From Escherichia phage vB_Eco-B1.1: 64,000 bases of DNA. The notes below the pieces were generated by a model. That model did no database searches. It was not told the origin of the DNA and worked only from the letters and a program-made list of their open reading frames with translations. This document shows positions 29,673-32,106 of the stretch, piece by piece (position 1 is the first letter of the stretch; the number at the start of each line of letters is the position of its first letter). The stretch lies in the sequence record ON871820, one strand, 5' to 3'. Both the position numbers and the translations under genes were made by a program.

Positions 29673-30266
29673 ATGAACACACTGAAGAAAATTGTTGAGT
29701 TTATTCGCACTAAACTTGGTTCTGCTATGGCTAAAAATCTATCTGTTGAAGAACAGTATACTGCCGCAGCAGCAAAACTGCTTGATAAAATTAAAGATCT
29801 AAAAACTGCTTCTGTTAAATCTATTAATGAAGAAAAACGTATTCGTGAACTTATTGTCGAAAAGAATAAGCAGGCTGAATCAAAAGAGCGTGAAATTCGC
29901 AAGCTTCTTTCCGAAGGTCAAGATGTAACAATGCATGCTAAACTCGGTTTACTATATCGTCGAACAGCTGAGCAGTTGACTACTAAAGCTGATGGTTATG
30001 CTGAAATGCGAATTGAAATCGCTAAGAAAGTAGTTGAATTGGATGATGCACGCCAAGAACTTGCGGTTAAATTGGAATATATCCGTGAAACTCGTGCAGC
30101 AAATGCCCTTGGAATTAGTACTGCTGATGATGTAGTTGAAATTGCAGCACTGACTAAGGTTGATATTGAAGATACTCTTGCTCGAGTTGAAACCTTTAAC
30201 GGTAATATTTCTGGGGTTGAAACTACCTCTGCCGATGTTCAGGAATACATTAATTCTCTGAAATAA
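29673..30266 (+). CDS. coiled-coil protein with PspA/IM30-like features (tentative)
   Basis: 197 aa, AGGAAA RBS; long heptad-rich helical sequence resembling the PspA family by eye; not verified by search. Confidence 0.55.
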
Positions 30267-30271
30267 TGATA

Positions 30272-30287
30272 AGGGGCTTCGGCCCCT
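30272..30287 (+). terminator. UUCG-tetraloop hairpin after PspA-like gene
   Basis: AGGGGC-TTCG-GCCCCT; weak downstream U-tract. Confidence 0.5.
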
Positions 30288-30307
30288 ATTACTTGGAGTA
30301 AATAGGA

Positions 30308-30916
30308 ATGAGAATGCAAAGTGATTTCAATTCAATGTTTGAAGAGTTCCAAAGGCAGGTTGATGTTCCAGACCAATTATTAAATGCTCTTAAACGTATG
30401 GCAGAAGGACGTAATTATTATTGGGGTTCTTCATATGAAACTGATGAAAGTCTTTCTGGAAGATTTTCCAGAGGTAAAAAGTCTTTAATACGTCCTGGAA
30501 TACTTATTAACAGTATTGAATCAATTCATTCATTGACGTGTGATTTTGATGTTGAATTTACTGATTTCATTTCTCCTGAATGGACAGTATGTTATTTAAA
30601 CGACGATTATGATTATCTCGGTGTTTATAGTTTAAGTGACGCATGGTTTAAACGTAATTTACAAAAGTCAAATTTATTCTATATTGATACTACTGTAAAA
30701 TTTCAGGGCAAGAAATATTTCTTTACTCTTATAGTTGATTCTGAAACGAAGCATGAAAATAAGCGTATTCTTAGTAAAAAGAATATCTTAACTATTGTTG
30801 ATGATCTTTTTGATAAATTCGTGGAAAATCCCAATTTTGAAAGCGATTTATTATTAGAAAAATTTGTTAAGGAATGTAGAGAATATGTCAAAACCATCAC
30901 TATACCTTCCAAGTAA
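30308..30916 (+). CDS. hypothetical protein
   Basis: 202 aa; C-terminal ...EKFVKECREYVK encoded by a junction repeat shared with downstream genes. Confidence 0.6.
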   Translation: MRMQSDFNSMFEEFQRQVDVPDQLLNALKRMAEGRNYYWGSSYETDESLSGRFSRGKKSLIRPGILINSIESIHSLTCDFDVEFTDFISPEWTVCYLNDDYDYLGVYSLSDAWFKRNLQKSNLFYIDTTVKFQGKKYFFTLIVDSETKHENKRILSKKNILTIVDDLFDKFVENPNFESDLLLEKFVKECREYVKTITIPSK

Positions 30917-31277
30917 ACCTTTGAAGTATGAATCAAAGCACCAGATAATTTCTACTGATGTATTAATAGGTCCTGTTATACTTATATCATTTGTAATTCT
31001 ATTGATTATTGGAGGTGTTTTAGATGTTATGACTGATATTGATTCTGGCGAAATACTTGTGTTAATGCTAATTCTTCCATTGGTAGTTCCACTTTTATTA
31101 GTACCCGTAAATTGGGTAGGATACTGGTATCAAGGAAGACATTATCGTAAACGTGTACACGATTGGAAAGCTCAGTGTAAAAAGATTAAAAAGGAACACC
31201 AGCTTAAACTTGCTGAGTATGAATTTAATGAAATTATGAAATTTGTTAAGGAATCACGATGCAAAAGCCAAAACTAA
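30885..31277 (+). CDS. small membrane protein, paralog family member 1
   Basis: ATG at 30885 after AAGGAAT; two TM segments, then a basic amphipathic C-terminus ending FVKESRCK. Confidence 0.6.
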   Translation: MSKPSLYLPSKPLKYESKHQIISTDVLIGPVILISFVILLIIGGVLDVMTDIDSGEILVLMLILPLVVPLLLVPVNWVGYWYQGRHYRKRVHDWKAQCKKIKKEHQLKLAEYEFNEIMKFVKESRCKSQN

Positions 31278-31621
31278 ATAAAGTCAAATATTCGTTTCTT
31301 GAGTCATTTTTAATTTTTGCTGTGGCGTTGGCTGCAGCTCTTGCGGGTAGTCTTTTTGGATTGTTAATTGACTGTCTTATTTTAAACATCGACGGCACAG
31401 TAAATATAACAGAAGTTTGGAATGAGCTTTGTTATACTAAAATTATTTCATTGTTTTCATTCTTTGGTATCATTTTATATTTTCATTATGATAATTTTAA
31501 AATAAATTGGCAAAGAAAAAAGGATTACAAAATACAATTAAAGGAATATAATAGCTACATGTCTTATATTGAAAATGAGTCAATGAAAGAGTTTGTGAGT
31601 GATTGTAGGAAAATTAAATGA
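31259..31621 (+). CDS. small membrane protein, paralog family member 2
   Basis: 120 aa; two TM segments; C-terminus ...EFVSDCRKIK; start overlaps the previous gene. Confidence 0.6.
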   Translation: MQKPKLNKVKYSFLESFLIFAVALAAALAGSLFGLLIDCLILNIDGTVNITEVWNELCYTKIISLFSFFGIILYFHYDNFKINWQRKKDYKIQLKEYNSYMSYIENESMKEFVSDCRKIK

Positions 31622-32106
31622 TTTTAAAAACTCGCTGGTATGATTTAGATGATGGGGATGATGGCATTCCAGTTGATAGAGTTGACTGGAATGGTTGTTC
31701 TGAAGATACAAAGAAACGATTAATTAGGGAGTTTAGAATGGGATATCAAGCAGCTAAGCCATTTACTGTAACAGATGATAAATTCGTGTGTATTCAAAAT
31801 GGTCGCGCTAAGTTAACGAATGCTGATTGGTTCACAGATAAGAAGGTTCTTCTGTGGTATATCATTAGTCTTCCTATATCATCATTCGTATTTTACTTTT
31901 TTATAAAAAATCCAATGGACAGAATAGGCGATTGGATTCTTTTAACTATACTTGTTAATATTTTTACAGCAGCAGTATTATCAGGAATATGGCGTATGTT
32001 CATTGAAATGCCATGGCGTTTACGCAGACAGCAAAAGATTTTTGATGAAAAGAAATATGCTCAAAATTTAAATAACTTTATCACTGAATGCAGGAAATTA
32101 AAATGA
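31618..32106 (+). CDS. membrane protein, paralog family member 3
   Basis: 162 aa; TM segments; C-terminus ...NFITECRKLK; ATGA overlaps with neighbours. Confidence 0.6.
   Translation: MILKTRWYDLDDGDDGIPVDRVDWNGCSEDTKKRLIREFRMGYQAAKPFTVTDDKFVCIQNGRAKLTNADWFTDKKVLLWYIISLPISSFVFYFFIKNPMDRIGDWILLTILVNIFTAAVLSGIWRMFIEMPWRLRRQQKIFDEKKYAQNLNNFITECRKLK

Follow-up and report, generated by a model that had tools for sequence, protein, structure and literature searches.

A diverged PspA/Vipp1 homolog in T4-like phages and a C-terminal tail motif shared by the proteins encoded downstream of it

We analysed a stretch of 64,000 nucleotides of Escherichia phage vB_Eco-B1.1 (sequence record ON871820; hereafter, the window), which belongs to a Tequatrovirus (T4-like) genome. 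Five consecutive open reading frames (ORFs) of the window map one-to-one onto the T4 genes e.6, e.5, e.4, e.3 and e.2 and are followed by nudE (e.1) and the lysozyme gene e. The first of them, e.6, is by profile and fold comparison a homolog of PspA/Vipp1, namely a divergent member, specific to phages, of the PspA/IM30/Vipp1 branch within the ESCRT-III superfamily. It forms a conserved gene pair with e.5, and both e.5 and proteins with two transmembrane (TM) segments encoded further downstream carry a common C-terminal tail motif, on which selection acts at the protein level. Taken together, these features may mean, as the most likely of the explanations considered, that e.6 acts in the manner of PspA/Vipp1, with the tail-tagged e.5 and two-TM proteins as its anchors, adaptors or clients; our own assessment of this proposed function is evenly divided between acceptance and rejection.

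Homology of e.6 to PspA and Vipp1

An earlier note on this DNA, made from the letters alone, had judged by eye that the product of e.6, of 197 amino acids (aa), resembles PspA/IM30, and profile searches did find similarity to the PspA family. A HMMER search of 1.84 billion representatives delimited the e.6 family as a closed clade of 45 clusters, all of ~200 aa. A profile made of close homologs matched cyanobacterial Vipp1 only at E ~1–3, yet collinearly from the N-terminus. When the profile was widened with distant family members (profile A2), Vipp1 was recovered from the PDB sequences with E=8e-5, and nine of the ten best matches were Vipp1/PspA, all of them aligned 1–146 to 1–147. Two of the distant members, P0067 and P0066, scored respectively 39.0 and 35.1 bits on the PspA family model PF04012 (cutoff 33.9) and matched the T4-proximal e.6 profile over their full length with E ~1e-20; one of the two is encoded on a T4-like contig, adjoining uvsX and gene 41. 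Judged from these profiles, the e.6 protein of the window belongs to PF04012 transitively, through P0067 and P0066, and not directly.

Because coiled coils inflate profile scores, the profile-profile comparison was accompanied by 62 reversed or shuffled controls. Aligned with hhalign to the PspA/Vipp1 alignment, A2 reached 90.9% (E=1.1e-6, 169 columns) with a score of 46.7, against 18 for the reversed profile and at most 16.7 and 23.2 for, respectively, 30 column shuffles and 30 heptad-block shuffles. Removal of the Pfam-positive clade still left 78% (E=1.7e-5) with the register unchanged. These values are conservative, since the PspA profile was thin (effective number of sequences, Neff, 1.6); the search with the E. 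coli PspA protein listed near-identical enterobacterial PspAs only, and the scan of a genome collection returned Enterobacterales only.

The AlphaFold2 (AF2) model of e.6 is almost completely helical and dominated by a long hairpin. It starts with a basic amphipathic alpha0 (residues 2–22), followed by the hairpin of alpha1 (25–80) and alpha2/3 (86–145) and by short C-terminal helices, and it displays the ESCRT-III-type helix topology (alpha0, alpha1-alpha2/3 hairpin, alpha4, alpha5). Among 350,542 chains compared with Foldseek, Vipp1 took ranks 1–8 (except one), the archaeal ESCRT-III protein CdvB2 came next, and Snf7 was also among the structural matches; the search with the Snf7 family model PF03357, that is, ESCRT-III proper, gave no sequence match in e.6. 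The hydrophobic moment of alpha0 is 0.45 in e.6 (family mean, 0.42) versus 0.42 in PspA and 0.57 in Vipp1, and this helix is basic throughout the e.6 family (charge +1 to +4), which is consistent, as far as sequence properties go, with the membrane-binding alpha0 of PspA/Vipp1. Independently, the e.6 homolog of Klebsiella phage Metamorpho was aligned by HHpred with E. coli PspA (4WHE_A) at 99.9% in a genome announcement (PMC7862958). The e.6–PspA homology has therefore been in print since 2021, as a single sentence without follow-up.

The likeness to PspA/IM30 (Vipp1)/LiaH (PF04012) extends collinearly from residue 1 to ~175 and includes an N-terminal amphipathic helix and an alpha1-alpha2/3 hairpin that follow each other in the same order and with the same boundaries, an aligned alpha4 segment ('ARVETF' in e.6, 'ARFESF' in PspA), and the general character of a cytoplasmic protein of ~200 aa without TM segment. 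Nevertheless, e.6 differs from the PspA family in several respects. Identity is only ~14%, with the T4-proximal sequences falling under the Pfam threshold; the protein is ~25 aa shorter than PspA, with reduced alpha4/alpha5 and a conserved C-terminus of its own (…Y-x-x-S-L-K); its alpha0 is more basic (+3 versus 0 to +1); and it is the early-expressed product of a lytic phage, with no PspF, PspB or PspC homologs found nearby. One could argue that the resemblance is a coiled-coil artefact and that e.6 is a generic helical-hairpin scaffold (for example, BAR-like or with a structural or assembly role) devoid of PspA-type activity. This seems to us highly improbable, given that the match is order-specific and collapses in the reversed and heptad-block-shuffled controls, that all methods align it collinearly from residue 1 onwards, that two family members exceed the curated PF04012 threshold, that Vipp1 comes first in the fold comparison, and that the HHpred result was obtained independently.

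Of 50,697 phage records, 1,106 contain a member of the e.6 family. All of these are T4-like phages, with Enterobacterales or Aeromonas as hosts, and identity goes as low as ~32%. The search of phage records detected canonical PspA in two unannotated metagenomic records only.

The e.5 neighbour and a tail motif confined to the region downstream of e.6

We compared 40 related loci, all of which contain e.6. The interval between e.6 and nudE varies in them from ~2 to ~6 kb and in gene content from lineage to lineage, with e.6 as its conserved anchor. In 38 of 39 lineages e.6 is directly followed by a member of a single, highly divergent family, that of e.5 (145–290 aa), so that e.6 and e.5 constitute a conserved gene pair. 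The structure model of e.5 is of low confidence and the fold search yielded no clear match. In the protein database, the Pfam accession PF26876 is precomputed for every e.5 homolog.

The earlier note had described the three following genes as small membrane paralogs, each with TM helices and a basic amphipathic C-terminal helix. Their membrane character was borne out: two hydrophobic segments are present in each of e.4, e.3 and e.2, together with basic N-termini, short acidic loops and basic C-tails (14, 10 and 9–10 K+R residues, respectively), and this positive-inside distribution of charges indicates an N-in/C-in topology with cytoplasmic tails. Paralogy holds for part of the set. Profile comparison identifies e.4 and e.3 as paralogs over their full length (hhalign 90.8%, E=1.2e-6, 107 columns; reversed control 1%), whereas the profile match of e.2 to them is limited to its last 15–18 residues, that is, to a C-terminal motif, so that e.2 is not a full-length paralog; the same tail, unnoticed before, is also present on the soluble protein e.5. 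A scan of the five proteins against PHROGs retrieved families of unknown function only, with a cross-match of e.3 to the family of e.4.

The tail motif has the form F-[VI]-x-[ED]-C-R in e.5, e.3 and e.2, and e.4 has a shifted variant. Over the 40 loci, 128 copies of it lie no more than 15 residues from a stop on the coding strand, versus 8 copies elsewhere on the same strand and 27 on the opposite one. All 123 instances in ATG-bearing ORFs lie downstream of e.6, and none was found in equally long upstream flanks (~6 kb). The carriers are 119 distinct proteins, 55 without and 64 with TM segments. The tail profile reads Φ(−3)-[E/N/D]-x-F-[I/V]-[K/E]-E-C-[R/K]-K (short form, L-E-x-F-I-K-E-C-R-K), and its hydrophobic positions −3, 0, +1 and +4 line up on a single helix face. 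The distant, PspA-positive relatives of e.6 adjoin membrane proteins ending in tails that lack the Cys (…SIIKHARSR… and …SIIEHSKRN…). The only other motif-like match in the window, at position 39932, lies within the thymidine kinase and is unrelated.

Because the motif codons overlap the ribosome-binding region of the next gene, we considered whether the motif could be explained at the RNA level, as a Shine-Dalgarno or coupling signal. We rejected this explanation: synonymous codons vary freely (TGT 60 and TGC 57 for Cys; for Arg, both AGR and CGN are used, 50 and 53 times), and the next start lies anywhere between 7 and 88 nt from the motif. Such free variation at synonymous sites shows that selection acts on the tail peptide. 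A conserved disulfide between e.6 and the Cys of the tail was likewise ruled out, because most members of the e.6 family have no Cys.

These genes can also be seen in a quite different way, with the interval from e.6 to nudE as a hyperplastic insertion hotspot. According to this explanation, e.6 and the genes downstream would be functionally independent, the latter being superinfection-exclusion, anti-defence or other accessory membrane cargo, and the tail would result from tandem duplication or cassette recombination or would serve a partner other than e.6. The variable length of the interval and the unrelated families found in it (for example, arrays of WVSSSxxC proteins and a DUF7275/DUF7277 protein) agree with this, as do the demonstrable duplication of e.4 and e.3, the hairpin located between e.6 and e.5 and the dispensability of all these genes. 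Yet the tail is attached to otherwise unrelated bodies, soluble and membrane alike, and is kept at the peptide level, which argues for a selected shared function instead of a passive duplication scar; moreover, an e.5-family gene adjoins e.6 in almost every lineage despite extreme divergence, and the upstream flanks are devoid of the motif. On balance, we deem the hotspot explanation possible but rather unlikely. The e.6–e.5 pairing and the occurrence of the tail only downstream of e.6 suggest, as comparative evidence, that e.6 and its neighbours are functionally linked. Both the conserved pairing and the set of tail-motif proteins appear to be new with respect to the searchable literature; the paralogy of e.4 and e.3 likewise seems to be new.

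The e.6–nudE interval of some of the related loci (L008, L009, L013, L018, L022, L023, L028, L029 and L041; e.g., L009:7862-9112) houses tandem arrays of 3–6 proteins of 61–151 aa, which are not present in the window. All the array proteins end in W-[VI]-S-S-S-x-x-C, with the Cys as last residue, and the arrays adjoin a 310–340-aa protein (Pfam DUF7277 and DUF7275) and a conserved 228-aa protein. Judged by the Ser/Cys-rich C-terminus that the tandem copies have in common, these arrays may represent a peptide-precursor or modification-substrate family.

Organisation of the locus and other features of the window

Over the region 29400–32600, which is matched by 648 phage records, the window shares 98.8% identity with phage vB_EcoM_NBG2. 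The five ORFs that the earlier note had placed between 29673 and 32106 were all confirmed (Table 1), each with an ATG start and a Shine-Dalgarno-like sequence. That note had also considered that they might be conserved ORFs of the e.2–e.8 type with a different assigned role. They are indeed the conserved e.2–e.6 ORFs, but no role has been assigned to them: the automatic GenBank product names that have spread through T4-like records (PV287714.1 and others) call e.6 a 'host specificity protein' (a label also present in UniRef names), e.5 a 'putative phosphoserine phosphatase' and e.3 a 'sulfurtransferase', and were discarded as none is backed by Pfam or NCBIfam. The e.2 gene is full length here, versus a truncated form of 102 aa annotated in T4.

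Table 1. Coordinates of the e.6–nudE cluster and associated signals in the window
Feature	Coordinates	Strand	Description
Candidate early promoter	29388..29416	+	TGTACA-17-TATTAT, extended TG; pattern scan; upstream of the 58-aa ORF preceding e.6
e.6	29673..30266	+	197 aa; PspA/IM30 (ESCRT-III superfamily) homolog by profile and fold comparison; protein 100% identical to T4 e.6
CUUCGG-type stem-loop	30272..30287	+	AGGGGC-UUCG-GCCCCU; directly 3' of the e.6 stop; sequence and pattern scan
e.5	30308..30916	+	202 aa; soluble alpha/beta protein; tail motif FVKECR (30863-30880) on C-terminal helix
e.4	30885..31277	+	130 aa; two-TM hairpin, N-in/C-in, basic cytoplasmic tail; shifted motif FVKESRCK (31242-31265)
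e.3	31259..31621	+	120 aa; two-TM hairpin; tail motif FVSDCR (31592-31609)
e.2	31618..32106	+	162 aa; 76-aa cytoplasmic N-domain, two TM segments, basic tail; motif FITECR (32077-32094)
nudE (e.1)	32103..32543	+	Nudix hydrolase (Pfam NUDIX, E=1e-13); context, not a proven functional part

The proposed translational coupling of the three membrane-protein genes can be maintained and extended. Overlaps connect e.5 with e.4 (32 nt), e.4 with e.3 (19 nt) and e.3 with e.2 (4 nt, ATGA), and the chain continues, which had gone unmentioned, through a further ATGA overlap of e.2 with nudE at 32103, nudE being its last member. Coupling does not reach from e.6 to e.5: e.6 stands outside the overlapping chain, separated by a 41-nt spacer that contains the stem-loop. 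This hairpin, annotated as stem_loop in the T4 record L13089 and as terminator in phage ASO78A, may be an RNA-stabilising hairpin or a partial terminator. Concerning initiation, the T4 record L13089 marks a -35/-10 pair just upstream of e.6, and the record of phage ASO78A labels the site equivalent to the candidate promoter of the window as a T4-early-type promoter; this candidate is the likely source of early transcription into e.6.

Other differences from T4 are found around the cluster. The ORF preceding e.6 (29453-29629, + strand) encodes a protein of 58 aa (phrog_5461, similar to RB14 ORF134) and not the 111-aa e.7 of T4, so that closely related phages are polymorphic at the e.7 position. 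Farther upstream, 26687-27701 (+) contains 11 tRNA genes (Gln, Leu, Gly, Pro, Ser, Thr, Met, Tyr, Asn, His and Arg) versus eight in T4, and two ORFs of unknown function (27720-28070 and 28448-28909), followed by strong terminator-like hairpins (28382-28405 and 28920-28939), replace the segB, rnaC and rnaD region of T4. On the other side, after the lysozyme gene e, three ORFs (33050-34416, +) have near-identical N-termini (two of them read MKMYQEFIVEA… and MKTYQEFIAEA…), which is the pattern of the capsid-targeting leaders of T4 internal proteins. The last one (192 aa) corresponds to IpIII, and the locus differs from the ipIII/ipII arrangement of T4.

A possible role of e.6 and its neighbours at the inner membrane

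The features described above can be assembled into a tentative scenario for a PspA-like function of e.6. The protein would be made from early transcripts and accumulate by mid-infection; in T4, early RNA was reported for all five genes e.2–e.6 and all five proteins were detected, e.4 and e.5 with early, e.6 and e.2 with middle and e.3 with late timing (PMC9697503 supplement). By analogy with PspA/Vipp1, the basic amphipathic N-terminal helix of e.6 would bind the cytoplasmic face of the inner membrane, and its alpha1-alpha2/3 hairpin would drive self-assembly into membrane-covering oligomers. These oligomers would limit proton leak, so that the infected cell would stay energised until programmed lysis. 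For their part, the always-present soluble e.5 and the lineage-variable N-in/C-in two-TM proteins (here e.4, e.3 and e.2) share the amphipathic tail helix on the cytoplasmic side, which might be a common docking peptide that recruits or anchors e.6 at the membrane, as in the LiaI–LiaH and PspB/PspC–PspA systems, or by which the tail proteins might assemble together.

The comparison with the bacterial psp operon, already drawn in the earlier note, is adequate for the layout. As in LiaI–LiaH of Bacillus, where LiaI is a small two-TM anchor, and in PspB/PspC–PspA of Enterobacteria, a PspA-type gene is located beside genes for small inner-membrane proteins with cytoplasmic tails, a likeness that is an analogy only. 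It does not extend to the gene products, which bear no similarity to PspB, PspC or PspD, and the genes after e.6, with the exception of e.5, change from lineage to lineage. In contrast with Lia and Psp, it is the number and identity of the membrane genes that vary in the phages, the conserved neighbour is the soluble e.5, and the partners share a Cys-containing C-terminal helix motif; to our knowledge, no such motif has been described for Psp or Lia systems. A parallel, as an idea only, may also be drawn with the eukaryotic and archaeal ESCRT-III (MIM-MIT) systems, which have the same superfamily fold and use a short amphipathic helix as a shared docking tag. However, in ESCRT-III it is the subunit itself that carries the docking helix, which engages the MIT domains of Vps4, whereas the phage motif is found on neighbouring proteins and the phage cluster encodes no AAA ATPase. 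A more ambitious version of our proposal would see in the tail a dedicated docking helix that plugs a changeable repertoire of soluble and membrane proteins into a phage ESCRT-III/PspA polymer, namely a modular membrane-remodelling or membrane-guarding platform with interchangeable adaptors that would tune it to different hosts or membrane-targeting defences. We judge this version unlikely.

Several observations weigh against a PspA-like function of e.6 in concert with its neighbours. Scans of the e.6 of the window against Pfam, NCBIfam and PADLOC gave nothing significant, individual Pfam scans of 32 close homologs gave coiled-coil noise only, with no match to PF04012 in either case, and the hhalign comparison with the profile of close homologs only is weak (11.9%). 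The confidence of the AF2 model is low for the N-terminal helix and for residues 165–184. None of e.5, e.4, e.3 and e.2 matched PspB (PF06667), PspC (PF04024), PspD or any other Pfam, NCBIfam or PADLOC family at E<=1, noise aside, and the e.6–e.2 cluster contains no PspF-type regulator gene. Furthermore, the hairpin sets e.6 apart from the downstream genes, a promoter of its own is annotated for e.6 in T4, and its adjacency to these genes could reflect an insertion hotspot, since the downstream set, e.5 apart, is hyperplastic and lineage-variable. Finally, knock-down by CRISPRi-ART of each of e.2–e.6 of T4 caused no fitness defect and classified all five as 'Not Fit', that is, dispensable under laboratory conditions (PMC11879866 supplement), which implies that any role of these genes is conditional; in their main texts, the T4 essentiality papers leave e.2–e.6 undiscussed.

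The transcriptional separability of e.6 from e.5–e.2 also leaves room for an action on host regulation, in which e.6 would be a PspA mimic that binds PspF or titrates PspB/PspC, thereby silencing or redirecting the phage-shock response, with unrelated cargo as neighbours. The early expression of e.6 would fit such a mimic, and so would the extension of the homology over the N-terminal residues 1–146; in E. coli PspA, the N-terminal region includes membrane-binding and PspF-interacting parts. We nonetheless find the mimic quite improbable. With ~14% identity to E. coli PspA in the hhalign alignment, conservation of a specific PspF interface is unlikely, and e.6 is just as conserved in phages that infect Aeromonas and other hosts. 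Given the global shut-off of host transcription by T4, there would be little need for a dedicated psp repressor. The conserved e.6–e.5 pair would also be left unexplained.

PspA, Vipp1 and ESCRT-III represent a universal machinery of membrane repair and remodelling, and the phage-shock protein owes its name to the response of the host to phage. That the best-studied family of lytic phages has its own diverged copy of PspA is significant from this perspective. If e.6 does protect the inner membrane, it would help to explain how cells infected by T4-type phages stay energised through injection damage, lysis inhibition or the attack of pore-forming abortive-infection effectors, and it would offer a tractable minimal PspA system. 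In turn, the tail motif provides a concrete handle on more than 100 "hypothetical" accessory proteins encoded in a hyperplastic region of these phage genomes.

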